A stretch of DNA of 43,724 nucleotides, filler included, from Catajapyx aquilonaris (GCA_000934665.2; 2 parts of 2 records of this genome joined end to end with filler, not necessarily neighbours in it), one strand, 5' to 3'; shown: positions 22,033 through 43,459, counted from the first letter of the whole stretch. Numbers and translations: made by a program. Notes: a model not told the origin generated them from the letters alone.

Positions 22033-22033
22033 C

Positions 22034-22150
22034 ATTCCCTGTCATTTCAAAAAAGCACGTCCTGAATGAAACGCTAAACGTTTTTCACATGCACAGGATA
22101 TTGAATGTTCATCACATGAAAGTACTTGTAGGCCAGGTACTGCCTTCACG
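22034..22150 (-). mobile_element. Fragment of an EnSpm-like accessory ORF, second copy of 25309-25420
   Basis: FHVMNIQYPVHVKNV*RFIQDVLF, with a near-identical nucleotide copy at 25309-25420. Confidence 0.55.
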
Positions 22151-22849
22151 ACGCAATAGTCATGTGCGTCCAAATGAAAAGGTGACGAGAGTCCTTGAAG
22201 GAAACATAGCTGTTCCATATAGGACCCGTTCCAGGTTGAAGAAATCGCAGTGAGCCAGCACTGATCCCACTATCGTGGAAGCTGGGATATGCCTTTCCCT
22301 GGGCTATGAGAGCTACCAGTTTGTCACAAGGTTCTGCGTCCGATGCAAACCTTTGCCACGCTTTGACCTTTTAGATATTTCTTGAGGGGGCCGATTAATT
22401 TATTATTACATGCAATTCACTTTGGATATTTCGGTGTGAATTCCATTTTAACTATTTATTTGTGTGTATACAGCTGTAGATACTGAACTCGCTGCGCCCC
22501 AATTGTGTGCCTTCGGCGCTACGCGTCCCCGCCAGGGCCTACCCACCACCGCAAGAGAGCTGGCAACAATTACCTGGAGTATGTCGTCAACGGAGTGACC
22601 AATGATGAATGGCAACCAAAAACAATGTGAGTGCGGTCGTAATTGACAAAAAGCAACTGCAACAATCAACCCACCAACTCACCAACGAATCAACCAACAA
22701 CAATGAGTACTGTGGTGGTGAAATGGACAAAAAGCCTTGCAAAAAGCACAGCTCTCTCCGACAACCACCATGCGAGAAATGAAGCATGTCGGAGGGAAAG
22801 GACTGCCTAACACTGAGGATGATGCAACAGACCACCCTCCCTGTCTCCA

Positions 22850-23400
22850 CTAATAAATGGCACAGCACAAGTTAATGAACCAACCTCAATTCCCACGTCT
22901 GCCAGAACTTCGAGTTCTGCAATGAGTGGTGCCAGTATTTTGTTCCGGCCAAAGTACTGCAGATCCACATTGCGACACAGTATACTCAAATGAGTTGCAA
23001 TTTATAGATGATCGATTATGTGTGCAAATTACCCAAGATGTCGTAAATTGCAGCAATTTTGTGCTTTTTTTCTGTGACTTCCAATTGGGTTCACAATCTC
23101 AATATCATCGAAGTAGAACAGCAAGAACAAGGCCCTCTTCTCACCAGTCAATAAAATATTCCCCTTAAAATGTCTACCATCTGAAAAGTCCTGGATTAGG
23201 CAACTTTCATTTCCATTAGGAGTCGCCAACTGTGCCCTCACATCTTCCATGTTTAAGAATTGCTAGGAGATTGTGGTATAAAGGAACGTACTGGAATGTT
23301 CGCAATTTTCTTAACTGATTCATTCGCAAGGTTACTGTTTGAGGCTCTACGAATCCCAGGTAATTTTTGTAGTATGCATACCGCCTATGATTACGTTTAA
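22850..23400 (-). pseudogene. EnSpm/CACTA(Plavaka)-like transposase fragment
   Basis: TFQYVPL...IQDFSDGRHFK...LFYFDDIEIVNPIGSHRKK/HKIAAIY..LGNL...ILAPLIAELEVLADVGI, with frameshifts and stops. Confidence 0.75.
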
Positions 23401-23904
23401 ATTACTTGTATCCTAATAGTAGCAGAGAAGTAAGTTGTGCGTGAACTTCATGTTATTGGCTGCAGTCTCTCATTTATTATATGTACACTATTGGTTCCAT
23501 ATCCCATGACGCATCACTCTTGCATAAATAGAATCATTATATGCAAATAATTGGGTCCGCGGGATGAAAACTGTAATCGTATACAAAATCTAGGCGTCGC
23601 CCACCCTTCACGACCCTCCCTACCCTTGTTGTGACCTTAGCATTTCGTTTGGGGTTGCGGCCTTATGTTTGGGCTTTTCCTTCCTCTCAACCCTCCTCGT
23701 GAGGGAGTACAATTCGTCTCTCAGCATTTCCCCCCCTCTGNCCCCCCCCCCCCCTCTGCGACCACCACCTCAACCTCCTCACTGGAATTTATACATTCGT
23801 TTAGTCTGGTGTTGACAATAGAGCGAGTCCATTTTCCAAGGAAGTCCTGCAGTTCACTATCACTGAATTGAGGCTGCAGGCCTGCCTCTTCACTTCCTCG
23901 GTTG

Positions 23905-24330
23905 AATGCATGCAATGTATGCAACAGGAAATACACCATATTTGCAGACCCATGGGTATAGACCGGTGACGTCAGCATAATCTCTCTCTCCTTCTACTGG
24001 CTGACGTTCCCATATAACTTGCAGGTCAACATTCCCCCTCTGTTTAATATTGCCTCCCTTTGAATGGTGCGTTGATATCTAATATCCATGGTGGAACATG
24101 GGTCTTCATCAAGTAGAATCCTCCGTTTGGAGGAGCATGTCGGACAGCTGTGAAAATAGCATCCATAAAACTCATAAATATGCGTGACATCACCTAATCT
24201 ACAGTACCCGCCGACTTTGTATCTCCCTCCACTTCAACCGCATTTCCTTGGTACATTAATTGTACTTTTTCACCGGGATTTGCTATGCTAGTAATCAAAG
24301 CGAGTCGTTTGTCCTGCATAAGCTTTAGCG
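23905..24330 (-). pseudogene. Maverick/Polinton protein-primed DNA polymerase B fragment, internally deleted (copy A)
   Basis: GRYKVGGYC...IYEFYGCYFHSCPTC...VIWE fused almost directly to YADVTGLYPWVCKYGVFPV (PolB motif A). Confidence 0.8.
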
Positions 24331-24339
24331 CTATCTCCA

Positions 24340-24870
24340 CCCGGCCAGCTTCGGCAGATGGACCCTGGTTTGGGCAGGTCGGAAGGAGGTCCAGGAAGTC
24401 AGACTCGTCCTCGGCGTGTCCGTCAAGTGGCGAGGCATCCCTCCCCCTCTTCATTCGCCACCACACCCTCCTCGAACTCATCCAGCTCCCTGTCAATCTC
24501 CCGGAGCAGGTTGTCACCCTCCGGCAAGGCCGCACCACCCGACTACCTGAGGAGGTACTCCACCCCGAGTGCCTCCCCGGTACCTGCTCAGTGGCTGGTA
24601 ATTTCCATAGAGGGTTATGTTCAGATGGGCCCGGGCCAGCCGGTTGGCTACCTGCTGCAGCCGCGTGGCTGCCAGCCAGCCTTCGCTGCGGCCCTGCCCC
24701 GGTTCAATTGGGACAGGCCGTTCAGCAAGTAAAAGAGAGATTGTTAGAATCCAGTCCAGCAGTTCCCCGATGGCAGCGGTGGTCCGCTCGACACCCCGGG
24801 TGCTCCTCCGGCAGTGCCTGCCCAGCTCCTTCCAGGGCAGCTTACCCCGGATGGCAGCCTTGTCCGTATT
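24340..24870 (-). pseudogene. C-terminal pieces of a DUF6729-family (putative transposase-associated) ORF
   Basis: KELGRHCRRSTRGVERTTAAIGELL, LNGLSQLNRGRAAA and TGEALGVEYLL, in shifting frames. These match motifs I recall from DUF6729 proteins (HCRRRTRG, LEGL.RWN.DRA, YTGELIGVEYL). Confidence 0.65.
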
Positions 24871-25308
24871 GAAAGCAAAAGCATTACTGTTTGTCATAGT
24901 CGGTAAACAATGCAATTTTGCACAATACCTTGCAGCAATGTGAAGTCAATTGGACCTTATCTTTGCACAGGTGTATAACAGTTTAAATCTGTTTCCATAT
25001 CTCTCACAACATTTTCACATACACTTGCCGGTAAGCCGGTCACATCACGCTCATTAAGTCTATGAAGCCCTACGTGTGTTTCGTTTACGCCTGAATGAAT
25101 CCTAATTACAGGTCTTTGAAAATTATACATCTTGGTGAATGTTTATGAACAAGTCCCTTCCATACAAGGTATCTTTTCGCCATCTGTTATCTGATTAAAC
25201 CTCGCAAATGAACCGCTAATTTTTGAACAGCCCGAAATGACTGGCCACACCTGAAGTGTTTCATACTGACAGTGTATCGGTTGATCAGAGGTCAAAAGAA
25301 ATTAACAA

Positions 25309-25990
25309 TCATTCCCTGTCATTTCAAAAAGCACGTCCTTAATGAAACGCTAAACGTTTTTCACATGCACAGGTTGAATGTTCATCACATGAAAGTACTT
25401 GTCGGCCAGGTACCGCCGTCACGAGGCTCGTCACTGCCACAGTGTCACACACTATAAATACATGATCTGAGTTGCACTTATTTCCCATTGCCAAAATAAA
25501 AGGCTGTGTGATGCTGCCATCACTCATGGCCCTTTCGTTTCGGACAAATGCTATACTGCTTTAACGTACATAGCCAGTACCACTGGAGCCTTTAACAGTT
25601 GGGAAAGTCTTCACCAACTCTTTGGCCAACTGTAACTTGTGACATTTGGTGGGAAAGCACCCATGTCGTTCGGTCAGCGCTTTCACAAAAACATCCCTAA
25701 TTTGCCCTTTTTTTTAAAAAAAAAAAATGTAAGTGATTTGTCCCTTATCCGCCTTTCGCTTCTTCAGTAGGTCAGGGCAGAAAAGGCTGCATGGCCACAT
25801 TGGTTTTAGTCGATTTTCTGGGGCCTCCTCCCTATCATCTCGGCCCCTGTGTTTACCCTGGAGAAATGTATCGATACTAGTGAGAAATTTTGTTTTCAAC
25901 ATCGGTGTGTACGGCTCTAATTGTCTCTGGCTACTATACTTCAAACCCCCCGACATCCCATGCAGTCTTCCTGGGCTGACTACTGTATTT
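25309..25990 (-). pseudogene. EnSpm-like accessory ORF fragment with a retained intron boundary
   Basis: KLQLAKELVKTFP...ITQPFILAMGN...VFIVCD...FHVMNIQ. T-rich acceptor at ~25710-25730. Confidence 0.5.
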
Positions 25991-26159
25991 GCAATACTTA
26001 TTATTAGTCCCCTTTTACAAAATGTTACAGTGGATTGGAGTCATTTCGTGTCAAATCAACACAATTGTCGGACTGACCAACTCGGATTTTGATGATTTTT
26101 GGCATACTTGCAGGTTTCATGGACATATGAAATCGTATCAGTTTTTAGCGGTCTTAATC

Positions 26160-26545
26160 CAGCGATGGGATAATCTTTGGATTGCATCAGCTCGATGCTG
26201 GTGGTTGATGTCTGCCAGGCCAGCAGATCATTAAACCTCATTCCTCGAATTGGCTCTTTCATCTTGGGGATAAGGTCGAAATCGCATGGGCTGAGAGGTA
26301 TGGCCCCCCACTATACTCAGTGTGTGCTCTAGGACCTCCCATCTCCACTTTTTTAACAAGTCACCCACGATCCCCGCCATATGGCACCGAGCATTGTCTT
26401 GCAGAACGATAGCAGATTCAAGCAAGCGGTGACGTTTGCGTCGGATGGCCGGTCGCAAGTGATGCTGTAGGAACGTGGCATAGTAATCCTTATTAACCGT
26501 CCAGCCGCGGGGAACACGTGACATACCAAAGGCATCATTGTCGAG
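26160..26545 (-). pseudogene. mariner DD34D transposase catalytic-domain fragment
   Basis: VPRGWTVNKDYYATFLQHHLRPAIRRKR...IVLQDNARCH...WEVLEH...LSPCDFDLIPKMKEPIRGMRF. No TIRs seen. Confidence 0.88.
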
Positions 26546-26564
26546 ACATCCATGACAGCTGACT

Positions 26565-26700
26565 CTTAGATTTGAAGATCCCGGATGTCCTCTTGGGCAA
26601 ACTTGTTCTTAATCTGCGTAAATAGGACGTCAAGAACTTCGTAATAAATTTTCCGCATCATCTGTTTCTATGACATGCTGTAGGATGTGATGTCTTCGGA
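26565..26700 (-). pseudogene. Short hAT (ZMYM1-like) transposase fragment
   Basis: RKIYYEVLDVLFTQIKNKFAQEDI resembles the hAT YY..LD....+..RF motif. Confidence 0.45.
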
Positions 26701-28004
26701 TTCCTATCTCCGCAGAACTCCGGGTGAAAAAGTGCTGACAACTCCGGTGATGTCCGTAGGGGTTTGGTGGCGCTGGTTCCTGAGCGCTCTGTTAATATGC
26801 CCTGAATGCTCAAAGACCCAACTCTACTGCAGCACTCCCATACGCATCCCCCAGGCCATAGCCCAGTGTCCCGCCCCGAAGCTAGGCATTTATGTCCGAC
26901 CTGCGGCCCAGTGCGAAACACTGATCCCACAATTTGGCAGTCGTCGTCACTTTTGTACTCCCGTACCTTAGGCACAGGCGGCCTGTCCAGACTGCATGCG
27001 TCAATGATGAACCACTTATTCCATGCTCTTGGGTGTGTGAGCGTTCCCTGTCAGATGGTGTGACACTTTGAGCCGGGTACTCCCTGCTGAAGAAATAAAG
27101 TTTATCATTTGTGATAAGTATTACATACTGTACATACGCGCTCCCTCATCTTGTTGTGGAAACAAATCTATCCCAGTAGAATTACTGCTGCAGGTTCTTT
27201 CTGAAAAGTGATAATGTGTAATCAGCTCATTTTAAACTATCTTTTTAGCCATTTGCCTTTTTACATTCACATATTATACGTGTCCACTGTTGCAGTAACT
27301 TTCTTCTCGGCACAGGTAACAGGATCCCCCAAGTTACTTTCATGTACGAAAGGGACCAACTCAAATCCTTCAACTCCATCCCCAGAGAGGTACTGTCTTT
27401 CTGCCCCTACTAGGCTTCACTGCTTCATTTTCTGGCAGATATGGGTGCCCCTTTCCCTCCAGCAATGGCGCACAACCTGCGTAAAAATAGAAGAAAAAAA
27501 AATCCTGAATATGGGGCAGTGCAGTTGGTCCAATCCTTGTGAAGGTTCCGCCTTGAAAATAGAACACGTTTTTCTCTGTGCTTGTCCATAAGGTTTTCCA
27601 GTAAATGTCTTGATGAACAGGGACGTCATGGCCAAGATGCATTTCCAACCAGGCAGTTTCTACCTCAGATAAATCAAATATCTGAGATACTTGTGCTGGT
27701 ACTTACTTCTTGGGACGTAGTCGTTCTTCCCCACTCCGTAACCGCCACACTAAACCCCAAGTAAAACGACTAGGTTAGGCCTAATTGTTTATTATACTGT
27801 GAATACAGCCCCACCAAAATCCTGTGCGTAACCTACTTACATAGAACTGGAGAGAGCCAGTGACCCGACACGCGCTTGATGGTGGTGGGCCTGAGACTGG
27901 TGGGGAGAGGCAGGTGGATGTCCCCCAGGTGCCCCCTACCCTCCCTGACCCCTCGAACACTCTGGTGCTGCCCCTTCAGCGGCTGCCAGTGTAAGTCACA
28001 GGCA

Positions 28005-29390
28005 GGGCCGCGACATACTGTAGCTACGTACTTGCATAGGTTTGTGCTTTATATGACCTTATGACTGTTGGGTTTTGAACCTTGAGGTTTTTTGTTATGC
28101 TCCTCTAAACCTGCCTGACCCGAAGGGCATTTTTGCTCCCGAACACTGCGAAAATTTGTGGATTTTATTTTAAATAAATTTTACATCTTGTGTTGTTGAA
28201 AGGGGTGCTTCGATGGCTTCCTTTGTTTCGTGAGTGAGAATTACAGGCACTGTCCTTCCTTTCTTTCCTGTACTCTAGTTGATGATCCAATGGAGTCGGA
28301 CATTTTTTCAGTTACTGGGAACATCATATTGGTCCAGTCTGGTGCAGAATTGTAACTCGTAATATTCATGAGAGCAAGTTCTCCTTTTATTGAATAAAAT
28401 GATACGCGCCAGACTGACTGTTGACGATTTGTGCCAGTCTCCGTAAGTTGGCTGATCTGAAACTTTCTTGCATTGAAGTTTGAAGATGCCTGTTGATAAT
28501 CATAAGGTCTGACTGGAGTCGTCTAGTGGTAGAGTTGGGGCTTGGTTTTTTTTAAAGTATTAATTACCGCAAGAGCAGGAGCAGATATCCTTTCTGTTTA
28601 TTGTAGGATATGAAGGTGTAAGTAATTTTCACGCACTGCCTCAGTTTTTAAAATCCTGTGAGGTCAGTGCTCTGCCTCGTAAAATTGCTGCGCATTTCTT
28701 AACGTGAATCCCAATCTTGAGGGCGCATGCCACGTTTTCTTCTGTCCAATAATGAGGTTTCCAACTTGCAGGTGCCTGGCACTCTGCACGACACCCTCGA
28801 TATACAGGGTGTAAATCCTAAGCGTGTCACCAGAACAGATGGTGGTAGAGGGCTCAGGTGTGAGCATTTTTGCATAAGGAACTAGGGGTCGGAAACGCAC
28901 CCTCACCGAGTTACGCCCCTTTCAAGTTTGCGGCAGGCGGTGTACAAGAGCGGCGGAGTGACTCGGTGAGGATGCGTTTCCGACCCCTAGTTTCTTATGC
29001 AAAAATGATCACACCTGCGCCCTCTACCACTATCTTTTCTGGTGACACGCTTAGGATTTACACCCTGTATTCTGGCCTAAGGAACATTTTCAAACAACCC
29101 TGGGGCTTCCCTGTTAATATCCTCAGTTGTTGTACTGTTCGTGCCACAATCCTCTGTGGCCTTCGCAAGACGGGATCTGAACTCGTCTTGCACTTTATTG
29201 TCTTATTATTCAGTAGCTTGTTAGTGCCATCTTTGGAACACGTCTAAATAATGCAGATAAACTCGTAGGACTCTGTGTGCCTGTATCTTTGTTCTAAAAT
29301 GCTCTGCCTTTCTTTAGTGAGTTTCGTAGAAATTTTTCACTAAATCCTCAATCTCCATGGCACGCTCATCTACTTGTCGTTGTCTAGGCG
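28005..29390 (-). pseudogene. Degraded tyrosine-recombinase-fold ORF of a Crypton-like element, interrupted by a MITE
   Basis: PSRLGFTLRN, LARIILFNKRR, GKKGRTVPVILT and STNLCKYVATVC occur in the order I recall for this family (IILFNRRR.GE, RGK.GR.VPVLLT, TST.LRK..AT). Confidence 0.6.
28805..29067. mobile_element. Tc1/mariner-type MITE (near-perfect hairpin)
   Basis: TA|CAGGGTGTAAATCCTAAGCGTGTCACCAGAA ... TTCTGGTGACACGCTTAGGATTTACACCCTG|TA, with ~105-bp arms. Confidence 0.92.
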
Positions 29391-29484
29391 CTGGCGCCGT
29401 GCTAACGTTGTTCCTCGCTACCAACTCCTTGATAACAACTTTCCTTTTATCCAGGTCTTCAGGCAGAGGTTTCTCTGCTTTCTG

Positions 29485-30018
29485 CTGACCACGGCACGGT
29501 CACAGGCATATTTGTGTGTGAGGACTGCTGGGAACCGGACCCTGAGGTCCTCGGGCACCTGGGCCATCACCCGGTCGTCCCAGGCCCTCAGTGTCAGGTT
29601 GCAGGAGTCGCATCTGTGGTAGTCCCCGACCAGATAATAGGTATCCCTAATGTCGAGGACTACCCTGACGTGGTTGTAGAGCCCCTTCAGCTGCAACTCT
29701 CTCCGACACGGAGAGCACTGCAGGGGCAGGTCCCACATCCTCTTTGGTGCCCACAAGAACAGCCGCCGCCTGAAGTACGCTGCTGGGATGGGAATGCCGA
29801 CGACTCGGGGCTCCGGCGGGTGGTACCAGTTGACAAGGTTGTCCACCAATTTCCCCTTGCCTCGGTAGAGGAGAGCCCCATAATACTCCCGGTCCTCCTC
29901 AGGCATTCCCTTGTCCCAGCCTTCTGGCACGAACTCGGCGGCGGACTGCCTTGGAGGAGGCGCCATCAGGACACCCGGGCCCGAGACAGACCCAGTGTGA
30001 CGTGGAGGAGGAGGAGGA
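29485..30018 (-). pseudogene. DUF6729 domain fragment (copy 1)
   Basis: WYHPPEP...YFRRRLFLWAPKRMW..LQC..C...GLYNHVRVVLDIRDTYYLVGDYHRC..C...FPAVLTHKYACD. Truncated at both ends. Confidence 0.8.
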
Positions 30019-30199
30019 GTAGCCATCACAGGAGTCCGAGTATTAATTATTTACCGACAAATTTTGCTCCCTCGTTGACATTGGAGCAAAATTCCGCTAG
30101 GAAAACTATCTCAGCTAGTTTTGTCCTATAACTGGAGCGTAGGCCTTCTTTGCTGTGGCGAGCAATGATAGCTTTTCCCTGAACACATCCCTCCCAAGA

Positions 30200-30660
30200 A
30201 TCTTCCACTGCATTGTCTGCCATGGTACAGCTTATTTCTTCATGGTGTGTGACATCATTAATTGCTGCACTTTCTAGGTTGATCCCATTTAGGTTCTTGT
30301 GGTATCTATACAAGAAAAGATCTGGAAACGGGGGCAACCTAATTTGGCCAAAAAATGCGGCTTTTGAGAAAGCCACGATGACCTTCTAGGGCTCTGTTAT
30401 TGACTCTTCTTTCATTCACTCTATAATACTGCAGCATGACAGCTGTAGAGAGTGGTAATTTGTTGGCTATAATTTGTCCGACTTGTTCAGGTACGCCAGG
30501 CGCATGGAACGGGTTCGGTTCTCCTCCATTCCTGCAATCAAAGCTTTCTATGTAGCTCGCTGCCTTGTCCTGGATTTCTTGTGAGATGGTCTGAAAGCAG
30601 CTGTTGCTGTCACCCTCATCATAAGATTCTTTCGGGAGCCTCAAATCACCATCCAATGTA
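30200..30660 (-). pseudogene. Possible NOF/Foldback (MULE-related) transposase fragment
   Basis: NPFHAPGV...KLPLSTAVML...RRVNNRALEGHRGFLK resembles the NP..P...LP.WS...R.TNA.VE.+F..LK region. Confidence 0.4.
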
Positions 30661-31064
30661 TGTCGACTTCTCTATATCCCATGACGCATCACTCGTGCAT
30701 AAATATAATTATTATATTCAAATAATTGGGCCCGCGGGATGAAAACTAATCGTATACAAAATCTAGGCGTCGCCCACCCTTCACGACCCTCCCTACCCTT
30801 GTTGTGACCTTAGCATTTCGTTTGGGGTTGCGGCCTTATGTTTGGGCTTTTCCTTCCTCTCAGCCCTCCACGTGAGGGAGTACAATTCGTCTCTCAGCAT
30901 TTCCCCCCCTCTGCGAACACCACCTCCTCCTCACAATGCTTCTGGAATTCATAAATTCGTTAAGTCTGGTTTTGACAATAGAGCGAGTCCATTTTCCAAG
31001 GAAGACCTGCAGTTCACTATCACTGAATTGAGGCTGCAGGCCTGCCTCTTCACTTCCTCGGTTG

Positions 31065-31500
31065 AATGCATGCAATGTATGCAACAGGAAATACACCATA
31101 TTTGCAGACCCACGGGTACAGACCGGTGACGTCAGCAAAATCGCTCTCTCCTACTGGCTGACGTTCCCATATAACTTGCAGTTCAACATTCCCCCTCTGT
31201 TTAATAATTGCCTCCCTTTGAATGGAGCGTTGATATCTAATATTCATGGTGGAAAATGGGTTTTCATCAAAGAGAATCCTCCGATTGGAGGAGCATGTCG
31301 GACAGCCGTGAAAATAGCATCCATGAAACTCATAGATATGCGTGACGTCACCCAATCTACAGTACCCGCAGACTTAGTATCTCCCTCCACTTCAACCTCA
31401 TTTCCTTGGTACATTAATTGTACTTTTTCACCGGGATTTGTTGTGCTGTTAATCAAAGAGGAATTTGTCCTGCCTAACCGAATGATCTTCTCAATGCAAC
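31065..31500 (-). pseudogene. Maverick/Polinton pPolB fragment (copy B)
   Basis: IYEFHGCYFHGCPTC...LQVIWERQPVGESDFADVTGLYPWVCKYGVFPV, with the same internal deletion as copy A. Confidence 0.8.
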
Positions 31501-32779: not shown

Positions 32780-35700
32780 TTAAGTTTGGTGCTGGCGGAA
32801 AAGAATGTAAAAAAATTGCTCGCGGAGTTGAAAGATTGGACAGTCATACATTATGTGATAAAGATCAAAGGGTGCGTCGTCGGTGCAATATGTGCAGTTT
32901 GTTTCTGGCGTTAGTGGAATGTATGATCGACCAGAATTTAAATAAATAGACCTGTTTTTAATATTTATTATTAATCGTTTGATTTGTAACGGCAAGTTTG
33001 CTACTAAATATGACGTATTGTTTACCCCGTTTGAATAAATCTCTTTATACTCCTTGTACCGAGTGGTGAGATGTTGTTTCTCCAAGTCAGCTGTATGAAG
33101 GCTCTGTGCTAGTTTTGTGAGGCACACCCGTTGGTCTACTTCCTCCAACTCATCTACCGCTGTGCCCGCTTTTCGTAGATGGTTTTGTACATGATTTATC
33201 CATATAAGTCTTTTGGGTTTTGTTGAATGTAGCGCCGCGGTTCGTAGGTAGGAATGATGCAAGAGTGGCTGCGTTTGCGTACACCTCAATTTCCTAATGT
33301 ATCCCAAAAGGATTTTTGTCAGTCTAACCTGGATAGACTCTATTTCCAATTCTAGTCTGAGGAAATAACCCGCAGTAGTTTTTGGCAGAGCAAATAGTTT
33401 CTTAATGAATAGATTGTATACTACTTCTAGCTCATCGTAATAACCGGGTGCCCAGACTGGGGAGGCATATGCCATAACAGGGAAGATTTTCGCATGGAAT
33501 ATTTTTATCGCTATGGCTTGGTCGCGTAACTTTAACCCCACTAACACCGGCCATATAGCGTGGACCGTTGTCTTCGCTTTGTCCGCAAAGTACCAGGCTG
33601 TTCTGCGGAAATTGCCGTTATTATAAAAGGGGACCCCCAGATATGTGTAGTGCGAGACCTGCTCAATTACGGCTCCATCCATTTGGAAAACACGAGCGTT
33701 TTTTCTACCCGACCTTGTGAAGACCATAATCTTCGTCTTTTCTTTGTTTATTTGTAAACACCGCATTTTGAAATACTCAGCTAGGCATTGCATACTTCGC
33801 TCAAAATAAAGCTGATTATCCGCCATCAAAACTAAATCATCTGCATACGCCAGCAGGTGTACGTCTGGCATGTCTGGGGCCACAGTTAAGCCTGGAGGGC
33901 CTTGCCTCCTTAAAAATTCATCCACGTCGGCAATAAAAAGATTAAACAGTACCGGCGAAAGAGGTTCGCCTTGCATGACTCCACATCCAACAGTTATCTC
34001 TCCTGGCTTGCCATCTTGGGGTACCGGTCTCACCTTTGAGTAAATATTAATAAGTATATTTATAAAGTGTGTTGGAAGGCCCAATGTGAACAGACGCTTC
34101 CACAAGTTTGAATGCTGTATGCTGTCAAGGCTTTTGATAAGTCGACAAATAGTGAAAACAATTTTCCTCTCGGTTTGGTTATTTGTTGCTGGATGAGGGC
34201 ATTAAGAATAAAAATCTGATCTTGGCAGCCTCTACCTTTTCTGAAGGCAGCCTGCGTTTCAGGGAAGATGTTCCTACTTTCCGCCCAATGTGAGAGACGT
34301 TTCACCAAAATTGATGTGTATAATTTGAACACGTTATTGAATAATGTAATCGGGCGGTAATTTTCAGGGCATGTCGGGTCACCTTTCTTGAAGATTGGAA
34401 TAACTATGGCTCGTGGCCAACTAGTTGGAATAATGGCAGCGCTGAGACAGAAATTCATCTGGTTTAATATATAGTCAAACAGCGGCTGTGAGTTAATCTT
34501 CAAAAAATTATTTGATATGAAATCAGGACCCACCGATTTATTCCTGTCTAATCTGCCAATTGCCGATGCTAGTTCGTCCTGAGTAATAGGTGATGTTAAA
34601 AGGTCATCTATTTTCGAGTGATACCCTGTCTGGCTCATCATGTCCATTGGATGAGGCGGCCGGTCACCAAATACTTTTTTCAGATGATGCCACCAAACGT
34701 TTGGGGGAAGGGAATTAATCTTACTTCGTTTTGTCCCTCCGTTTACCAGCTGCCAAAAAGTTTTTGCGTCCTTTGTCTGGGTCAGGGTATTGCGTCTGCT
34801 TCTCTCATATGCCTTTGCCTTTTGCCGTTTTCATATTTTTATGAGTTCGATTAGCTGCTCTGTAGTCCTCCAGATTAAATTGAGTAGGGTTTTTTCTCCA
34901 AGCTTCTAACTTTTTCATCACTGTTCGTTTTGACTCTCTAATTTCCTCGTCGAACCATTTGGCCCTATTTACTTTCGTGTGGCTACCCGTATCCGACTTA
35001 GGGGTATACAACAGCCCTTCTTCCAGTAGCAAATTTGTCGTTAAATTAGCAAAAGTTGACGACCACCTGTCTACTAATAGTTGTTCATCCTCATTATCCT
35101 CTGCTTCAAGATGTATTGGTAAAATCCATTCATCTATTTGCGGAGCTAAGTGATCCAGAGTGGTATCCATCCAAACCAGTTTTTTGTATGTTTGCGGTGG
35201 TGGGGCAAAATGGGTCAGATAGGGGAACATGACATGCAAGGTTATTGGGAAATGGTCTGATCCTAGCACATTTAGCACCTCGAAATTCAGAGCCATGTGA
35301 GCAAAAGCGTTGGACAAACACATAATATCTATAACTGAACAGCCCTGATGAGATACAAAAGTAACGTCACCCTTGCTATCAGACCGAGACGTACCATTAA
35401 CAACTATCAGAGCATTCTCATTACAGAAGTTCCAGAATAATTTACCTCTCATGTTTATAATTTTATCTTCTGATTTACGATCCACAGAGCAAAATTCTAA
35501 TGGTGCTTCCGTTATGAACATTGATTGCACCGTCTCGTTGCCCAATCTAGCGTTGAAATCGCCCATTATTATCAATGGTCCGTCTCCGTCGTAATTTTGT
35601 GACAATAGAAAATTTATCACTTGTAGTTGCTCTTCCAACGGCATAGTCGGTGCACAATACCCCAAAAATAAATGAACCGTGGTGTAGCTGACTTGAATAG

Positions 35701-36025
35701 TAACATAAATATACCAGTCTGAATCATTAACCAGTGTTGAAGCCCACTTTTTACTCACCAAGAGTAAAATCCCACCAGAAGGGCGGCCCACTTTATATAA
35801 TTTCACTGCCGGCACTTGGAATATCACGTAATTTACTTCAACACTCTTAATTGACACCTTATTTACTTTCCAAGTTTCTAGTAATCCTATGGCGAGTGTG
35901 GGTGGGGACAATGTTCGTACGTCTTCAAGTCTTTCTAATATTGGCCCTCCCGCAACATTCCAACACGTTACCGTTAGCGAACTGTTTCGCACATATTCTT
36001 CACCATTGTTAATAACTTCTCTCAC
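32780..36025 (-). pseudogene. LINE ORF2 (AP endonuclease, reverse transcriptase, C-terminal CCHC) with two frameshifts
   Basis: WNVAG, LLETW, IMGDFNAR, GSDHFPI; PIFKKGD, NYRPITL, FVDLSKA, GVMQGEPLSPVLFNLFI, YADD; CTYC...H...C. Frameshifts at ~34830 and ~34125, both next to short homopolymers. Confidence 0.92.
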
Positions 36026-36137
36026 CTCACCGGAAACGTCCTCTGATGTGTCAGCCGGATTTTGTTCCTTTCTCGACTCATGTTACGACTTGCCAGTTGT
36101 TGACCTCCTCACTTCTTGTGAGCCTTGAAACCTGAAC

Positions 36138-37091
36138 TTATCCAGCTTTCGGCCGACATCGGGTTGAGGGGGCCAGCAAGCCCGCCATCGGTATTGCCGG
36201 ATCACCATACTCACTGGGGACTGATACCACAGGGGGTGGGGGATTCAACACTTCACTAGACACCTCTGTTTCACCTCCTTCGTTTGATACCGGGCTTCCT
36301 AATTGTGCGTTAAGTCGTTTCCCAGGGCCAGCAAAATCTTCTGGCGAACTGATGGGCCGTTTTGTGGACTGTGCTCCCATTTGTTTGTTGCCTGTTGTAA
36401 TTTCTTGAGAGCCGCGTCGGGACCGTTCGACCCGCTGCACATCCGTCCCCTCCGCATTGAGCTCATAGAGTGTGCCATCCACCATCAATTTGTCCATCTT
36501 GAATGTTGCCAAATGGTTTCTCTGTTTCGCGTCCTTTAAAAAAGGAAGGAGCGCTTGCCTTTTTATACGGGTGGCGATTGCATAATCTTCGGATAGACCC
36601 AACTGCGTGTTCTTCAGATTTTTTGCGTTTGACAGTAGAATGTCCTTGTCACGTTGCCGCAAAAGAGCCGCTATTATTGGTCGGCGACCCTCTTTTGACC
36701 CAACACGGTGAACGCGTTGGAACTCTATCGCAGCTGGTGATGGGTGAAGGTCAAATTCCGTCACCTTTGCACGCAGTAACTTCTCGGTGTCGGCCCATCT
36801 TTCCTTACCATTTTCCGGCACTCCGTATAGCACGATGTTTAGCCTCCTGGATCGATTTTCGAGTTCTTCCAGCTGGCCTCCGAGATTGCTGACCTTGTCC
36901 TGCAGCTTGGTATTCTCTTGTTGCAGGAAACTAGCGGAGGCCCTCAGGTCCTCCATTTCACCACGCAGGCCAAGGTGCGACTCCTCCCAGGATGACCGTA
37001 AATCCGTGGCAACCTGGTCCATGTTAGCTATCAGGTCTGCTTTGAGACTTTCCAGAAGTGACCGTATGGCGTCCAACGACACTTCGCCCAT
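36138..37091 (-). CDS. LINE ORF1 (coiled coil plus L1-type RRM/CTD)
   Basis: Intact 317-aa ORF. Heptad region, then LENRSRRLNIVLYGVPE, FQRVHRVG...RPIIA and LSEDY. Confidence 0.9.
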   Translation of the reverse strand: MGEVSLDAIRSLLESLKADLIANMDQVATDLRSSWEESHLGLRGEMEDLRASASFLQQENTKLQDKVSNLGGQLEELENRSRRLNIVLYGVPENGKERWADTEKLLRAKVTEFDLHPSPAAIEFQRVHRVGSKEGRRPIIAALLRQRDKDILLSNAKNLKNTQLGLSEDYAIATRIKRQALLPFLKDAKQRNHLATFKMDKLMVDGTLYELNAEGTDVQRVERSRRGSQEITTGNKQMGAQSTKRPISSPEDFAGPGKRLNAQLGSPVSNEGGETEVSSEVLNPPPPVVSVPSEYGDPAIPMAGLLAPSTRCRPKAG

Positions 37092-37247
37092 GGTAACTCG
37101 GTGTAGTCCAACGCACTATTACGGTGATTTGACTCACGATAAGTCCTTTTTTCCCCTTGCGTTGGAAAAAGAGGGAAGGGGGGGGCTCTGACTATTACGG
37201 AGCTCCGCACAAGCACGACCGATCTCACTCGCTCTCACCAGTCGTCT

Positions 37248-37545
37248 GATTCCTGGCAGTGTTGGTGAAGGCTGCTGTAATTTCCGGACATGCTTTCCAG
37301 GCCATCCATCCTGATTTTTCCCCTTTGCCAGGGAATGCTGAAACGGTGTCACAACCAGTGAAGCTGTGGATTTATTCTTTCCCAATGTCTGTGCAATACC
37401 ATTAACGTGAATGTAGGAAAAGTTCCTCCCTTTACTGAATGCCACCCAGATGTTGGCCTTGGGACACAACGCTTTCAGTTGGTAAAACTTTCCTATCAGA
37501 ATGGCTATAGAACATCTGTATCCACAGTGCGAATGAAAGAGTTTC
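37248..37545 (-). pseudogene. Academ-like XPG/PIN nuclease fragment, 5' part
   Basis: IRTVDTDV...IWVAFSKG...TGCDTVSAFPGKGEKSGWMAWKACPEITAAF. Confidence 0.75.
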
Positions 37546-37664
37546 AAGCGAGTGCAACATGGTGGCACTTTTGCACCTCAAAGAGATGGCAAGCAACCAG
37601 TGAGGATGCCAACTTCCTGAGACCTTTCAGTCTTTCAAGAGTCCTAAGCATAGTGCTCTGACTT

Positions 37665-37740
37665 GTCCCACTCTAAACCAAGCTCCCGTGCTGTCCATCG
37701 CCGAGTGTCCGGCATGCAACATCCAACAACTCCAAGCGCA
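37665..37740 (-). pseudogene. Very short mariner N-terminal HTH-like fragment
   Basis: DTRRWTARELGLE resembles the mariner DRR.T.RE+A.E motif. Too short to be certain. Confidence 0.35.
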
Positions 37741-38339
37741 CCAGTCTCGGGCCGTCTTAGGGCGATGGTGCGGTTGGGGTGGTCACATTCTCCATTTGTT
37801 TCCCCGGCCCGTCGCGATATAGGCAACGTCTATATGCCGGATCGAATTGTAATCGCCGGATCTTTAATCAGCTCGTGTAGATTTATTGCAAGCAAGAAAG
37901 GAGCCAATCTGGGCATGCTCTGGTATGGGCCGCGACACTTGTACTTTCAAGGAGGGAACTCGAATACTTGGATAGTGGGTGGAAGTTGCTTCCCTCCCAC
38001 ATTTCCTCGTTTGCGCCGGGCTTTATGGCCAACTGGCCAGCTAATGGGGTAAAATAAATAAAAATATTGAAAATTATTGCACCTGGTTGAAGGGTAATTC
38101 TAAAATGCCCTCGGAATCATTACGGTACACCCTACATATACCTAAATAAGTAGCACCATCCCCTGCTGTTCTGCACCTTTGGTCGCCATTTCTGCTGGAA
38201 AAAAAGAGGATTTCCTTCATACTTTGACTGTCCCACATGTAATATTGGAAATATTTTAAAATTTGTGCATGAAATTCATATAGGTTATCCAGAAATATTC
38301 AAGGAACGAGAATTTGAATTTTTTTTTATTATTCCAATT

Positions 38340-39197
38340 TTGAGTGGGTGTTCCAAAAATGGAACACTAGGCAAAAACCAGTCCAAAGCCTAGTGTTCCA
38401 TTTTTGGAATGCCACATAAGCACCTGCAGCAGGTGTCACCTGCTCCTGAGATAAGAGACACAATTTTATACACTGTATACAATGTAGCAGTGGTTTTCGG
38501 TTGAATATCACACTGAATAAGAGCTATTCAGTGTGGTAATCAACAGAACACTTCACATGTAATGCAACATCACACTTTCCACACCGAAATGTGGTGTTCT
38601 TGTGACTCTCAGCACACCGTGTTTGTTTTCCCTGTTTTACAATCCCATGGTTGATGCCATGGTAGCTGGAATCAATGTTCTTCTTCTGTGATGGTCTTCC
38701 TCTGCGGCCTGGTGCTCCAGCATGACAATAGGTTTCCAGATAGTGGCACGCCACCCTTCGGCGAAACTCCAAAAAATCCATGGGCTTCGTCTCATAGGTT
38801 TTATGGAGCTGGCCATGGATTTTGCAACATCCGTTCGAAGCAAAAGAAAAGAGGGCTGGAGTACCACTTTTTCCCCCGGATCGAAGCCCGATACTTGTCA
38901 ATGTTTTCGTCAGCCCTATCTACTCCTCCCATGTAGTGGTTGTACACTTTTATCATGTTTGGCTGCTGAACTTGGATCTTCTTCAGTTTCTGGGAATAGC
39001 GATTCACAATACCCAGGGGATGGATACCAGCACCAGATGAGGCAACAGTGACAACACTATTGTCATGCCATCTGCACACAATATTCCCCTTGCCATCAAT
39101 TCGATGATCGAATGTGCCTCTGTCTTTTTTCTTTAAAGCTACATCTGATTCCAATGGTGCGTTGTCAATGCGATTCTTTCTCACAGTACCAGTTGCC
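38340..39197 (-). mobile_element. piggyBac transposon 3' part, PGBD3-like (C-terminal DDD region, Cys-rich domain, subterminal palindromes)
   Basis: GTVRKNR...RWHDNSVVTVAS...YNHYMGGVDRAD...RGKKWY, a frameshift, then CAESHKNTTFRCGKCDVALHVKCSVDYHTE*. Palindromes GTTCCAAAAATGGAAC (38350-38365) and GTTCCATTTTTGGAAT (38395-38410). No TTAA-bounded terminus seen. Confidence 0.9.
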
Positions 39198-39399
39198 TAA
39201 TATCATAATATATTCGGGCGCCCTTCCACATAAAGGGGGGAGAGAGAGCCGAGCGTGGAGAGGGATGTCAAAGCCATAGCACATTACGACATTGTTAAAT
39301 ATAAAATTGTACGCCCATCCGTAGCGGCACCCCCCTATAATAGGGGGACACGTCCTGATCTTGGGAGCATATCCTACGGACACAGGCAGGTGCCGTAGC

Positions 39400-39545
39400 A
39401 TCCGTTTTTGGATCGTACATGAGTGCCTCAAATCGCTCTAAGGGACTCGTTGACTCTTCTGAGACATGGGTAAGAGGATGGGATATTGCACTGAATGCAG
39501 AGGTCATTTCTGGGCGAGCCGTCCATATTCTTTTCCTAAGCAATT
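39400..39545 (-). pseudogene. Second, divergent Academ-like nuclease fragment
   Basis: WTARPEMTSAFSAISHP...EESTSPLERFEALMYD, the same region as the 37248/32468 junction but a different sequence. Confidence 0.6.
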
Positions 39546-40729
39546 GCAGAAAGATAACTCATCACATCAAGTGAAGCAGTGGAAGCCGCGCAGGATACTG
39601 TACTTCAGGTTTCCATCTGAAAGTATCCCCTCTACAAAGTGAAAGTGGTATATTTAATAACTGAAATGATACATATAGGTCTGTTACATGCAGGTTGTGG
39701 TGTATCCTGGAAGGTAGATTTTTATTTACAAATTAATTGAAAGTAAGTGATTAAGTGAAATTACTTACACGTCACATTTTGAAACCCACTTTTATTTCTT
39801 TCACATGATCATGTAGAGAACTCAGGAAGAGAGTTTCTTCTACTTTAACCAAGGGAGTAATAGCATGGGAGAAATACACTATTCATTTCAAGGTGCATGG
39901 GAAATACTGTACGTCATCTTCATCAGCTGCAACCCATGTCCTATATAGGGGCTATTAGGATTGGCAATTCATCCTCACACCCATAATACTTGTAACTAGC
40001 CGTGACAGGATAGGAGCGAGAATAATTCGTGCTCAGAGTGTGGTTTGTAGTGGCATATTGCTAATTCAGACTTTGCTTGATATACCTTCCCTTGATGACT
40101 CATCTTGTGATTCTTGATCTTATTCTCTGTGTATCTGGAAAGAGAGATTTCTCGACGAATTCAGACTTTCTGTTTATAAGAGCATTACTGCCCGCCTCTA
40201 CACACAATACACACTACGCATAGATACGTTCCTTCACTAACAACTGGTTTTTAGCACTGGTACATTGTTAGTCACATCTGATTACGGGGAATCAGTAAAT
40301 ACAAAATCTTCATGCATGAAGTCACTGTAATGTAAACTCATCCTTCTCTGGGTACCCCGTGCATTAACGTGGGAGCAACCAAGGTTGTGTTAATTCATGT
40401 TTACTCACTGGCCCCTCTGCCGCTGGAGGTTGCGGTGGAGCCTGTGACTGCAATGGAAGAAGGTAAATTTGATTAATGTTAAGTTACATGAATGGCCACA
40501 AAAGTATCACATCTGCAAGCCGCAGCTGACACTGCATGGGACGTTGCTATAAGTGGAGAATTTTTAATTTGGGCCCCTCTGAATATTTTCCTGTTCCTTA
40601 TTTTGCCTGCCGGCGCGCATTGGTCTCCTGCCGCATCGCACCTTCCCATATCAGATTATTTAAATTAAGTAATGAGAGATAACTGGGAATGAGTGTACGG
40701 GTATGTCAGGTATGGCCTGACATGACAAT

Positions 40730-40962
40730 TATCCACCCACAACAGATACAATTTTCAATTGCTTTTGACCTTCTCACGATATTACAGATAACACGACATT
40801 TCGTATCTTATGGTATGACAGTACATGACAATGCTTTATATCCAGGCAGTGTAGTTATGGTAGGTTATACAATGCAAACGTCAATTTCTGTGATTTAAAA
40901 AATGTCACCTCCAAATTCCTCAATTTCACTTATTCTGACTTCGTTTCATCGTAGTACAGGAT
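40730..40962. repeat. ~230-bp direct repeat, copy 1 (copy 2 at 41972-42209)
   Basis: Colinear, moderately diverged match, e.g. taacacgacatttcgtatcttatggtatg and gtttcatcgtagtacaggat. Confidence 0.85.
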
Positions 40963-40964
40963 CA

Positions 40965-41135
40965 GAGTCCGTGGATATGAGTGCCCAGAACCCAATAGTG
41001 GTAAATTTAGGGATAGAGGAACTGGTAGGGAGGACGTTTGCCACTCGTACAGGGACGATGCCAGGGTTAGAACCATCGGTAGGGTCGACCAGACATCGAG
41101 CAAGGAGAAAATTGAACTTGTCGGCATTCTCCAAA
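40965..41135 (-). pseudogene. Gypsy-type pol fragment (region after the protease)
   Basis: FLLARCLVDP...IVPVRVANV...IPKFTTIG resembles LVAR.LV...VPVRV.N...L.K.T.+G. Confidence 0.55.
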
Positions 41136-41136
41136 C

Positions 41137-41900
41137 ATGGTTGCCGAGGGCCGTGGGGCTGTTGCCCAAGGTCCGCTGCTGGAGAAGGCTGACCACGCCA
41201 CGGTCACAGGCATATTTGTGTGTGAGGACTGCTGGGAACCGGACCCTGAGGTCCTCGGGCACCTGGGCCATCACCCGGTCGTCCCAGGCCCTCAGCGTCA
41301 GGTTGCAGGAGTCGCATCTGTGGTAGTCCCCGACCAGATAATAGGTATCCCTAATGTCGAGGACTACCCTGACGTGGTTGTAGAGCCCCTTCAGCTGCAA
41401 CTCTCTCCGACACGGAGGGCACTGCAGGGGCAGGTCCCACATCCTCTTTGGTGCCCACAAGAACAGCCGCCGCCTGAAGTACGCCGCTGGGATGGGAATG
41501 CCGACGACTCGGGGCTCCGGCGGGTGGTACCAGTTGACAAGGTTGTCCACCAATTTCCCCTTGCCTCGGTAGAGGAGAGCCCCATAATACTCCCGGTCCT
41601 CCTCAGGCATTCCCTTGTCCCAGCCTTCTGGCACGAACTCGGCGGCGGACTGCCTTGGAGGAGGCGCCATCAGGACACCCGGGCCCGAGACAGACCCAGT
41701 GTGACGTGGAGGAGGATGAGGAGCGGCAGCAGCATCCATCTGGCACGGAGGCACCCCCACGTGCCAGGTGTTTTGGGCAGGCCCGGATCTTTTCCAGCTC
41801 CCTCCTCTGAGGCGTGTTCCTCCCTGGCCACTCGCCCTGGCCAAATCGGGCTCCATGGGCATAGGCCCTCAGACGGTCCCGCCACTGCTCTTATTGATTT
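41137..41900 (-). pseudogene. DUF6729 domain fragment (copy 2, longer)
   Basis: As copy 1, plus YACDRGVVSLLQQRTLGNSPTAL. About 5 substitutions versus copy 1 over ~535 bp by eye. Confidence 0.82.
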
Positions 41901-41971
41901 TAACTTTTGCTGGAACAGACGATACACTGACCATGTTAACTTTTTTCACAAATAAAAGTCCATCCACCATA

Positions 41972-42209
41972 TATCCACCCATAACAGAGAAAATTTTCAA
42001 TTGCTTTTGACCTTATCAACATATTACGGATAACACGACATTTCGTATCTTATGGTATGGCAGTACATGACAATGCTTTATATCCGGGCAGTGTAGATAA
42101 TTATGGTAGGTTATACAATTCAAACATCAAATTATGTGATTTAAAAAAAAGTCTCCTCCAAATTCCTCAGTTTAACTTATTCTGTCTTTGTTTCATCGTA
42201 GTACAGGAT
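41972..42209. repeat. ~230-bp direct repeat, copy 2
   Basis: Matches 40730-40962. Confidence 0.85.
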
Positions 42210-42917
42210 ATGCCTGTAACCTGTTCCTCTAAGTACAACTTTCATGATTGTGTTCGTTGTGCGTGCATAGTAGGTGATTGATCCAGGATAGTATGCGATA
42301 GGAGGATTTGCAGCATATGGGGCAATACAATTAATGTAACTGCATATGAATCGGAGGAGGGTCCCCTGTGTTGATGACGTGAGGAACCCTCTCCGAACGA
42401 ACGACCCAAATCAAGGGACGAGTTACTGTCAAACCCATCGTCCATTCTCCTTCATATCAACCACTAACCATTTGTTTATTGACTATGCCAAGTCCCCCAC
42501 AATATACACACCTGCTTGGAACAACGCTTGGAGAACGTATACTTACATAATTATCCTTTTTCGGTATGCTCATTTCGTAGCCTTGGGAAGGCCTCTATTA
42601 TGCTTTGAGCCATCCCTTTTCCTCCACTGATGGCTCATTAATCCTTTAACACAAGAAAACACTGTACAACCGTTGCAATGCAAGAAAATAAGCCAAACTA
42701 CAAGTAGATGTGTGTTTACACACCACTTGCAGACATGAACATAATTGACATATGAAAGTTTATATAAATATAACAAGTCACTACATGCGTACATACTAAA
42801 TTGCATGAGCAAGGAGATATTTTCCGAGCGTTCTCATAATCATCATTTTGTAAACATTGTTTATTCAGGTGTGTAGACTACTTACTCTCCAAGATCATTA
42901 AAACAATAACCTCCTAA

Positions 42918-42988
42918 AGGTGTATTCACAAAGCAGCTGAAAATGACTCAGCCTCTGAGTCATTTTGCGCTGCTTTGTGAATACACCT
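42918..42988. mobile_element. PIF/Harbinger-type mini-MITE
   Basis: TAA|AGGTGTATTCACAAAGCAGC...GCTGCTTTGTGAATACACCT|TAA, a 71-bp hairpin. Confidence 0.75.
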
Positions 42989-43459
42989 TAATGCACCACT
43001 CCTGAATCAAAAGGCAGGCAGGCAGCAATATCAGCAGACATTTGACCTAACTGCGGAGCTGTATTGGTGGTCACATAGACCAAGTCCCCAAAAAATGAAA
43101 AAGGAAGAAAGCAAAACTGGCAACAAAAGCAAATCCAGTATGTTCAAACTTGAAATATTTCTGACTACGTGTGTCATTACTGAACACAGTTAAATTTCCT
43201 AATGAAGCGAGCAGGAACTGCCACAGACAATGTCACAATAAATCAATTCAATTTATTTTATTTTATTTTATATACCCCGTGATGCAACCCTGGGCCGCTT
43301 TAGGGGGGTGGCAGACCACCATACAGTGTTCTAATTATTATTTTTCTTCGATCACCGGTGCAAGGAATACTAGGAAATTGGGTAAGGGGGGGGGGGGGAT
43401 TTGGGGAGGGGACGCATGTGCAGGTGCATTGTCCAACGGTGGGCCAGGTGCAGTTCCCG

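Follow-up and report, generated by a model that had tools for sequence, protein, structure and literature searches.

In the available portion of PMC10643416, flam-like loci are defined by their enrichment in LTR/Gypsy elements and by the antisense bias of these elements, and they extend over tens to hundreds of kb, with a promoter and documented small RNAs. The unidirectional clusters of Anopheles gambiae were set by small-RNA mapping, with >75% or >90% of the piRNAs derived from one strand, and one-strand clusters are described in the same available text as common outside Drosophila, with no requirement for heterochromatin (PMC4662822). A stretch of DNA from Catajapyx aquilonaris (GCA_000934665.2; 43,724 nucleotides, filler included, hereafter the window) contains at 22033-43250 a candidate member of this known kind, the uni-strand piRNA cluster. 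As in flamenco-type loci, its transposon remnants run overwhelmingly one way (8/8 loci, few in number); the antisense enrichment of env-bearing LTR/Gypsy elements that marks such loci in PMC10643416 was not found. The features of the region are as follows.

22033-23495, minus strand: block with a possible CACTA/Plavaka-like remnant in ORF 23032-23262 (a lead, from the Atlas)
23496-24321, minus strand: repeat unit A with an internal Maverick-type pPolB piece (DNA repeat, tblastn)
24322-26058, no strand assigned: first block without a protein match, plus strand purine-poor like the verified minus-strand pieces (skew)
26234-26608, minus strand: mariner-type transposase remnant, weak (Pfam, PDB)
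27523-29189, minus strand: stop-ridden, near-complete gene from an unnamed eukaryotic family whose predicted fold resembles tyrosine recombinases (phmmer, tblastn, fold search)
28805-29067, no strand assigned: palindromic MITE within the recombinase-like gene (TIRs, TA duplications)
29484-30019, minus strand: DUF6729 piece 1, an internal stretch of coding sequence, 536 bp long (Pfam)
30671-31477, minus strand: repeat unit B, sharing its internal pPolB piece with unit A (homology, tblastn)
31478-32452, resuming at 37263-38526, no strand assigned: LINE-split sequence without a Pfam family (LINE target-site duplication)
32468-37247, minus strand: full-length LINE, ~4.78 kb (Pfam, (TAAA)n tail, target-site duplication)
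38527-39196, minus strand: 3′ half of a piggyBac transposase (Pfam)
40730-42209, minus strand: DUF6729 piece 2 with flanking direct repeats (Pfam, self-match)

Results

Pfam scans covered all 309 stop-to-stop ORFs of at least 55 aa on both strands (E ≤ 0.01) and, in a second pass, 237 ORFs of at least 40 aa (E ≤ 1). Transposon-type matches fell on six ORFs of the first set, all on the minus strand, and neither scan returned a transposon-type match on the plus strand. In total, eight transposon-derived coding loci from six families were verified in 22033-43250. Maverick-type pPolB and DUF6729 account for two pieces each, and the other four loci are a weak mariner remnant, a tyrosine-recombinase-like gene, a full-length LINE and a piggyBac 3′ half. 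The preliminary description had placed every assignable fragment on the minus strand, and this holds for 8/8 loci and 6/6 families, with 0/8 loci on the plus strand where an ordinary region of nested insertions would show balanced orientation. Its estimate of about 20 fragments from about ten element types, abutting each other, was not confirmed: only eight loci and six families could be verified, and these pieces span only ~11.3 of 21.2 kb, leaving 47% of the interval without assignment. The satellites that it reported in the left segment are present there, all 24 tandem-repeat rows lying left of 21832. Beyond the DNA repeats, tblastn of 387 ORFs of at least 50 aa against the window revealed no protein-level repeats, and Rfam returned 0 matches in the window at gathering thresholds. 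The four sequencing runs listed for 24400-34399 are all DNA runs from a single sample and study, and may be the source of the assembly itself.

A single orientation would arise by chance with a two-sided p of ~0.008 for the eight loci and ~0.03 for the six families, before correction for the 605 windows of the genome scanned. The eight loci include two that duplicate two others, locally or as members of one family, and are therefore incompletely independent. These figures bear on the explanation that the region is an ordinary repeat-rich one, co-oriented by chance, in which the signal is inflated by local direct duplications and a post hoc interval, an explanation that we place on the unlikely side. 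With only six independent families (p ~0.03) set against 605 windows, several such windows would be expected by chance, and both the pPolB units (90.5% identity) and the DUF6729 pieces (99.1%) are direct-orientation duplicates. The interval begins at an N run, its left limit coinciding with two 44-N runs, and stops immediately left of a plus-strand ORF in a block of opposite purine skew; thus, it was picked after the fact. Chance fits less well with the dispersed repeat pairs within the region, which are direct in 4/4 cases.

The composition of the plus strand also argues against chance. Its purine skew is negative in 16 successive 1-kb bins (23001-39000), whereas on the left 10 bins are positive and 12 negative, and this single sign over 16 kb includes five blocks without assignment between 24.3 and 32.5 kb, in which the skew is negative too (z −1.9 to −4.0). 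The block at 24322-26058 (skew −0.096, z −4.0) contains no Pfam family at E ≤ 1, and its longest ORF of either strand has no PDB match. Purine skew is ~0 at 22033-23495 and positive at 43251-43724. A PDB sequence search was blank or irrelevant for 43304-43723 and 24198-24869 on the plus strand, as it was for 24197-24703, 30050-30385 and 37137-37577 on the minus strand. A shortage of AATAAA, considered as a mark of a long plus-strand transcript, was rejected, as an excess was found instead, with 14 occurrences on the plus strand of 23742-38900 against 4.7 ± 2.1 expected. An undepleted plus-strand AATAAA is not what would be expected of a plus-strand transcript from which termination signals are strongly selected out, and on this point the chance explanation gains.

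An orientation filter could also operate with no piRNA production, should a plus-strand host transcription unit contain the region, as an intron, as part of a 3′ UTR or within a long non-coding RNA, and should ordinary selection there act against sense insertions. At 40-372 a plus-strand ORF resembling an fn3 exon (Pfam fn3, 7.6e-6) is consistent with such a unit, and the tendency of intronic LINEs and LTR elements to lie antisense is established in the available portions of PMC3088655, PMC3517506 and PMC1794541. However, no other plus-strand fn3 or exon-like Pfam match occurs among the 148 plus-strand ORFs of at least 40 aa in 1-21932 (E ≤ 0.5), nor rightward, and a C2H2 zinc-finger ORF on the minus strand intervenes at 15011-15412. 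The intronic bias is moreover partial and concerns LINEs and LTR elements, DNA transposons having been excluded from the analysis in the available text of PMC3088655. Taken together, a host unit of this kind is improbable, more so than chance.

The two pPolB units are 90.5% identical and in direct orientation. In unit A the piece corresponds to residues ~700-846 of ~1250, and tblastn of PF03175-bearing proteins places it at 24269-23917 on the minus strand. In unit B, ORF 31053-31373 has six significant protein matches (E 1.4e-12 to 7.1e-10), with PF03175 in 6/6, and tblastn places the piece at 31373-31077, again on the minus strand. Homology to the protein-primed DNA polymerase B of Maverick/Polinton elements is thus present in two places, over only ~140 internal residues.

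DUF6729 piece 1 (ORF 29421-30050) matches profile positions 1-155 of 229 (Pfam, 1.4e-47), and the second piece (40963-41971; ORF 40933-41868) matches positions 1-172 of 229 (5.8e-55). Direct repeats of 235 bp, 89.9% identical, border the second piece on either side (40730-40962 and 41972-42209), and in the Atlas this piece lies near DUF6729 clusters (0.93) and KDZ-transposase CxC clusters (0.86-0.88), which are leads only. A full-text literature search for DUF6729 found no paper. The 536-bp piece recurs at 41188-41723, 11.7 kb away, in direct orientation with 99.1% identity and sharp ends, an example of the local copying of a fragment. Tandem duplication of a unit running from pPolB to DUF6729 was considered and rejected, as the intervening sequences are dissimilar and the pair identities differ (90% vs 99%).

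Two elements carry the signs of their own insertion. The LINE is laid out as ORF1 (37115-36141), endonuclease and reverse transcriptase, and a (TAAA)n tail, with the endonuclease/reverse transcriptase region in three ORF pieces owing to two frame breaks. RVT_1 matches ORFs 32783-34201 and 34063-34830 (E 8.4e-21 and 3e-9), and Exo_endo_phos, together with Exo_endo_phos_2 (6.8e-11), matches ORF 34808-36082. Its 15-bp target-site duplication (37262-37248 and 32467-32453) is 14/15 identical, and because of this duplication 31478-32452 is taken to be continuous with 37263-38526, the two parts having purine skews of −0.091 and −0.023, respectively. The MITE is an inverted self-match at 28802-29070 (86.7%) flanked by TA duplications at 28803-28804 and 29068-29069, as read from the sequence. 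Each of the two is thus set into another element and bounded by its own termini and a target-site duplication, as is expected of nested insertion. The preliminary description, which saw no TIRs or target-site duplications in most pieces and attributed the mosaic to the capture of fragments instead of nested insertion, is contradicted by these two elements, the LINE with its tail and 15-bp duplication and the MITE with its TIRs and TA duplication.

The same two insertions weigh on the explanation that a single large composite element present in several copies (a Helitron, a Pack-type or a giant element) carries the whole mosaic as co-oriented cargo. Internal gene fragments of unrelated elements do stand side by side, and a 536-bp DUF6729 piece does recur at 99% identity 11.7 kb away. 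Nevertheless, the LINE and the MITE each arrived by an insertion of their own with a target-site duplication, a Helitron Rep/helicase or other carrier gene is absent from all Pfam scans, and the stretch has no look-alike among the other windows scanned, which is weak evidence. A composite element is very improbable.

For the gene at 27523-29189, an exhaustive phmmer search with the read-through identified 60 proteins at E ≤ 1e-3 (best 3.1e-9), a family for which a word-index search had given no match. The tblastn matches are all on the minus strand, at 28730-28146 (1.5e-13), 27696-27523 (6.5e-9) and 29189-29073 (1.5e-4). Sequence matches to Pfam and PDB were none, a family profile against PDB being blank or irrelevant, and a fold search with a family member ranked XerH, Cre, lambda Int and topoisomerase IB at the top (Z 8.2-8.7, Foldseek E ≥0.08). 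Based on this predicted fold, the gene may be that of a tyrosine recombinase (Crypton-like or similar).

The mariner remnant scores below the 24-bit Pfam cut-off for Transposase_1 (14.7 bits, E=0.028) and matches residues 211-274 of the Mos1 transposase in PDB over 62 residues (E=0.0015); its adjoining ORFs (26059-26310 and 26661-27050) have no PDB match. For piggyBac, ORF 38804-39196 matches DDE_Tnp_1_7 at profile positions 231-349 of 349 (3.3e-23), and ORF 38527-38919 looks like the cysteine-rich tail of a piggyBac transposase (Pfam C1_2, E=0.011). Other element types named in the preliminary description could not be recovered. The EnSpm-like ORF yielded 14 candidates in a word-index search for longer proteins, 0 of them at E ≤ 1e-3, and in the Atlas its top neighbor is an unnamed eukaryotic cluster (0.98), with a Plavaka cluster (48% of members) 15th at 0.89, so that Plavaka is a lead only. 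No Pfam family of hAT, NOF-like, Academ-like or Gypsy type was found among the 237 ORFs of at least 40 aa at E ≤ 1, a scan limited by incomplete Pfam coverage. Integrase, protease, RNase H and LTR-type reverse transcriptase are likewise missing from the Pfam scans, the only RVT_1 matches being those of the LINE.

Discussion

The region is a decayed, nested transposon graveyard made by ordinary events. The LINE retrotransposed into older repeat DNA, the MITE inserted into the recombinase-like gene, DNA-transposon and Maverick genes were cut down to internal pieces, and some pieces were duplicated locally in direct orientation. Tentatively, and with more doubt than conviction, we favor the interpretation that this graveyard has stood under the orientation filter of a plus-strand unit, most plausibly a putative uni-strand piRNA precursor. 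The plus strand would be transcribed as one long non-coding unit, insertions in the sense direction of the transcript would be lost, and antisense insertions would be retained as a source of antisense small RNAs that target DNA transposons, a Maverick and a LINE. The remnants are of mixed age: the LINE is young, with two frame breaks, the DUF6729 copies are 99% identical, the pPolB units are 90% identical and the recombinase-like gene is stop-ridden. Mixed ages in one shared orientation are as expected from a lasting orientation filter. Against a piRNA precursor stand the undepleted AATAAA, the absence of LTR/Gypsy elements, the few loci, an interval set post hoc and the 47% of its length without assignment.

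A broader proposition, somewhat more doubtful, is that the locus may belong to a group of uni-strand loci that serve as piRNA sources in an animal outside the drosophilids, composed mainly of DNA-transposon, Maverick and LINE remnants and not of endogenous retroviruses, and growing by antisense insertion and by the local copying of short internal fragments. Should small RNAs confirm the putative precursor, the flamenco-type design of one transcript antisense to many parasites would extend beyond insects and reach DNA transposons and Mavericks, beyond retroviruses, and there would be a sequence-only route to finding such loci. Should they not, the region would illustrate how readily a few remnants in one orientation, partly made up of local duplicates, can pass for a designed archive.

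Among known systems, the intronic antisense bias of transposable elements (PMC3088655, available portion) offers a likeness in that most of the insertions left by selection inside a transcription unit are antisense, without any small-RNA function being required. It is partial, however, whereas here 8/8 loci, mostly DNA-transposon genes, lie on one strand, and the enclosing gene is only hypothetical. The euchromatic clusters of Anopheles gambiae are defined by small-RNA mapping and the present locus by sequence layout only. Unlike flamenco, the locus is made up of a LINE, a Maverick piece and DNA transposons, with no LTR/Gypsy remnant found, and it occupies at most ~21 kb within the window. Like flamenco and the flam-like clusters of Drosophila, it contains nested insertions and truncated copies, and it packs remnants of several families and ages in one direction, an arrangement in which a single transcript would lie antisense to every one.

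Transposon remnants on one strand

The 22033-43250 region is a strand-biased transposon graveyard, derived from ordinary insertion, truncation, and local duplication. A Pfam scan of all stop-to-stop ORFs of at least 55 aa on both strands (n = 309, E <= 0.01) placed transposon-type families on six ORFs, all of which are on the minus strand and to the right of 29 kb. ORF counts are even between the strands, and thus the asymmetry in orientation is not an artefact of ORF number.

Transposon-type Pfam matches (E <= 0.01)
29421-30050, minus strand, DUF6729 (1.4e-47)
32783-34201, minus strand, RVT_1 (8.4e-21)
34063-34830, minus strand, RVT_1 (3e-9)
34808-36082, minus strand, Exo_endo_phos_2 (6.8e-11)
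38804-39196, minus strand, piggyBac DDE_Tnp_1_7 (3.3e-23; profile positions 231-349 of 349)
40933-41868, minus strand, DUF6729 (5.8e-55)

A second scan (E <= 1, ORFs of at least 40 aa), which excluded the two DUF6729 ORFs, LINE ORF1, the LINE interior, and four further ORFs, covered 22045-32757 (n = 138) and 36086-43724 (n = 99). The sole addition from the first interval was a weak match to mariner Transposase_1 at 26234-26608 (minus strand, E = 0.028, under the family cut-off), an ORF that also matches the Mos1 transposase in PDB (E = 0.0015); the 99 ORFs of the second interval yielded no additional family. Among 37 candidates, the minus-strand ORF at 31053-31373 matched six proteins (E = 1.4e-12 to 7.1e-10), all carrying PF03175 (organellar and viral type-B DNA polymerase), four of them ~1250 aa long and the others 954 and 302 aa. 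By tblastn, residues ~700-846 of the long polymerases align to the minus strand at two places, 31373-31077 and 24269-23917. pPolB is thus represented by small internal pieces within two 0.8-kb repeat units of 90.5% identity.

In total, eight loci from six families could be verified, to varying degrees, and all eight are on the minus strand; the verified pieces span ~11.3 of 21.2 kb. The preliminary description of about 20 one-strand fragments from about ten element types holds for the orientation of the verified loci, which are fewer than it counted, and the hAT, NOF-like, Academ-like, and Gypsy remnants it listed were not found in these Pfam scans, Pfam coverage of such families being incomplete. 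The piece described as EnSpm-like (ORF 23032-23262) had no protein match among 14 candidates, and Atlas provided leads only: an unnamed eukaryotic cluster (0.98) and, at rank 15, a cluster in which 48% of members carry Plavaka (0.89). DUF6729 was placed by Atlas in DUF6729 clusters (0.93) and also near KDZ-transposase cysteine-cluster families (0.86-0.88, leads only), through which DUF6729 and the "EnSpm-like" piece may come from related superfamilies.

A recombinase-like gene

A word-index search with the recombinase-like read-through returned no match among 80 candidates. When 27051-29402 (minus strand) was read through as a 784-aa query, an exhaustive phmmer search identified 60 proteins within a threshold of E <= 1e-3, the lowest E value being 3.1e-9, and every match fell on query residues ~193-439. 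Proteins of this family aligned by tblastn to three collinear minus-strand pieces, at 29189-29073, 28730-28146 (1.5e-13), and 27696-27523 (6.5e-9). Rather than the short fragment it had been labelled, the locus is, judged from these alignments, a near-complete gene of ~1.7 kb (27523-29189, minus strand).

The family is eukaryotic and without a Pfam model, its 60 representatives (P0007-P0066) ranging from 146 to 1409 aa. Pfam scans of 16 of the 60 found no domain in 14, BRCT domains in one, and a SET domain in one, both exceptions being long proteins. No relevant family was found for 18 members scanned at E <= 1, nor was there a relevant match of the family profile to PDB sequences. For a fold model of one member (18-sequence alignment, pLDDT 78.7), the top Foldseek ranks were XerH and Cre, with E values of only 0.08-0.4, and VIA-align ranked XerH (Z 8.7), Cre (8.4), lambda integrase (8.3), and topoisomerase IB (8.2; rmsd 3.3 over 114 residues) highest. 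A tyrosine-recombinase fold is likely, at a level under a firm threshold.

Insertion and duplication history

The LINE (32468-37247, minus strand) is a complete insertion. ORF1 lies at 37115-36141, and two frame breaks divide the endonuclease and reverse transcriptase into three ORF pieces. The element ends in a (TAAA)n tail near 32500-32468 and is flanked by a 15-bp target-site duplication (14/15 identical) at 37262-37248 and 32467-32453. An estimated ~0.015 chance matches to the 11-bp exact core of this duplication are expected in the space searched. The duplication indicates that the LINE split an older sequence, such that 31478-32452 continues at 37263-38526. A palindromic MITE flanked by TA duplications (263 bp, 28805-29067) likewise splits the recombinase-like gene. 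Fragment capture in place of nested insertion, as originally proposed, fails for the LINE and the MITE, which have their own target-site duplications; other pieces, those of DUF6729 among them, are true internal fragments.

The first DUF6729 piece (29484-30019, 536 bp) has sharp ends and is 99.1% identical to part of the second (40963-41971), which retains more of the gene on either side. The second, a 1-kb fragment, lies between direct repeats of 235 bp (89.9% identical) in a block at 40730-42209. This block may be either an insertion that produced a long duplication or a pair of adjoining copies of another element. Read on the minus strand, the two 235-bp repeats both start with the last part of an open frame, and these frames are similar. 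The duplicate pieces are in direct orientation, and local copying has thus shaped the layout, leaving fewer independent orientation events. A single composite element as the source of the whole region is very improbable.

Strength of the asymmetry

The two-sided probability of one-strand orientation by chance is ~0.008 by loci (8/8) and ~0.03 by families (6/6), values not to be over-read as the region limits were chosen after the pattern was seen. With 605 windows of the genome scanned, chance alone should yield a few 8/8 windows. The dispersed repeat pairs of the region are direct in 4/4 cases. Co-orientation through chance plus duplication is a possible reading, less likely than not.

Purines are under-represented on the plus strand in an unbroken run of 16 bins of 1 kb (23001-39000), compared to 10 positive and 12 negative bins in the left half. 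By block, skew is negative for verified minus-strand pieces, the GC-rich DUF6729 pieces excepted, and for five unassigned blocks at 24.3-32.5 kb (z -1.9 to -4.0), and near zero at 37248-38526, 39197-40729, and 42210-43250. The negative skew of the unassigned blocks suggests that more minus-sense remnants are present than could be named, or these blocks may belong to neighbouring elements. In the right part, plus-strand AATAAA is not depleted and occurs at ~3x expectation (14 observed vs 4.7 +/- 2.1 expected), which also counts against over-reading the asymmetry. Beyond the region, 43251-43724 (plus strand) has a skew of +0.135, opposite in sign to the region, and holds a 140-aa ORF running past the window end; by eye it resembles a LINE ORF2 linker region, with no Pfam or PDB match to back the resemblance.

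Window setting

The window DNA is animal-like. A plus-strand, exon-like ORF at 40-372 matches Pfam fn3 (7.6e-6), with no second plus-strand fn3 match elsewhere in the window. Of the fibronectin type III domain, this ORF carries the C-terminal half; a weaker DSCAM-type fn3 match was also seen. Placement of the region within a host transcription unit would offer a route to the same layout independent of piRNAs, as LINEs and LTR elements in introns have an antisense bias (PMC3088655); however, Pfam ORF scans found no plus-strand exon besides 40-372, and this placement is improbable.

A C2H2 zinc-finger ORF occupies 15011-15412 (minus strand), and a stretch resembling it, likewise on the minus strand, is found at a distance of 11 kb (3620-3727, tblastn 1.1e-5). 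The left half also contains several unrelated satellite arrays.

Satellite arrays in the left half
4937-5276, period 27 bp
8182-8861, period 32-34 bp
11261-11516, period 31 bp
12489-13116, period 48 bp
13836-14377, period 184 bp

ATCGAT is abundant in the array at 8.2-8.9 kb, which is also partly palindromic. CpG observed/expected is 0.88 in 1-21932 and 0.68 in 22033-43250. Two runs of 44 N (21933-21976 and 21989-22032, 12 bases between) fall right at the region's left boundary and may be a gap or masking, and thus the satellite-rich left and transposon-rich right halves may not be adjacent; a single N occurs at 23741.

Comparison with known systems

The region is a candidate uni-strand piRNA source locus, the most favoured of the readings from sequence and somewhat short of probable. 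For flam-like clusters, the defining features are LTR/Gypsy elements that are enriched and biased to antisense, together with a promoter and somatic piRNAs (PMC10643416); of these, the orientation feature alone is found here, and the Gypsy feature is not. Unidirectional piRNA clusters are common in Anopheles (PMC4662822).
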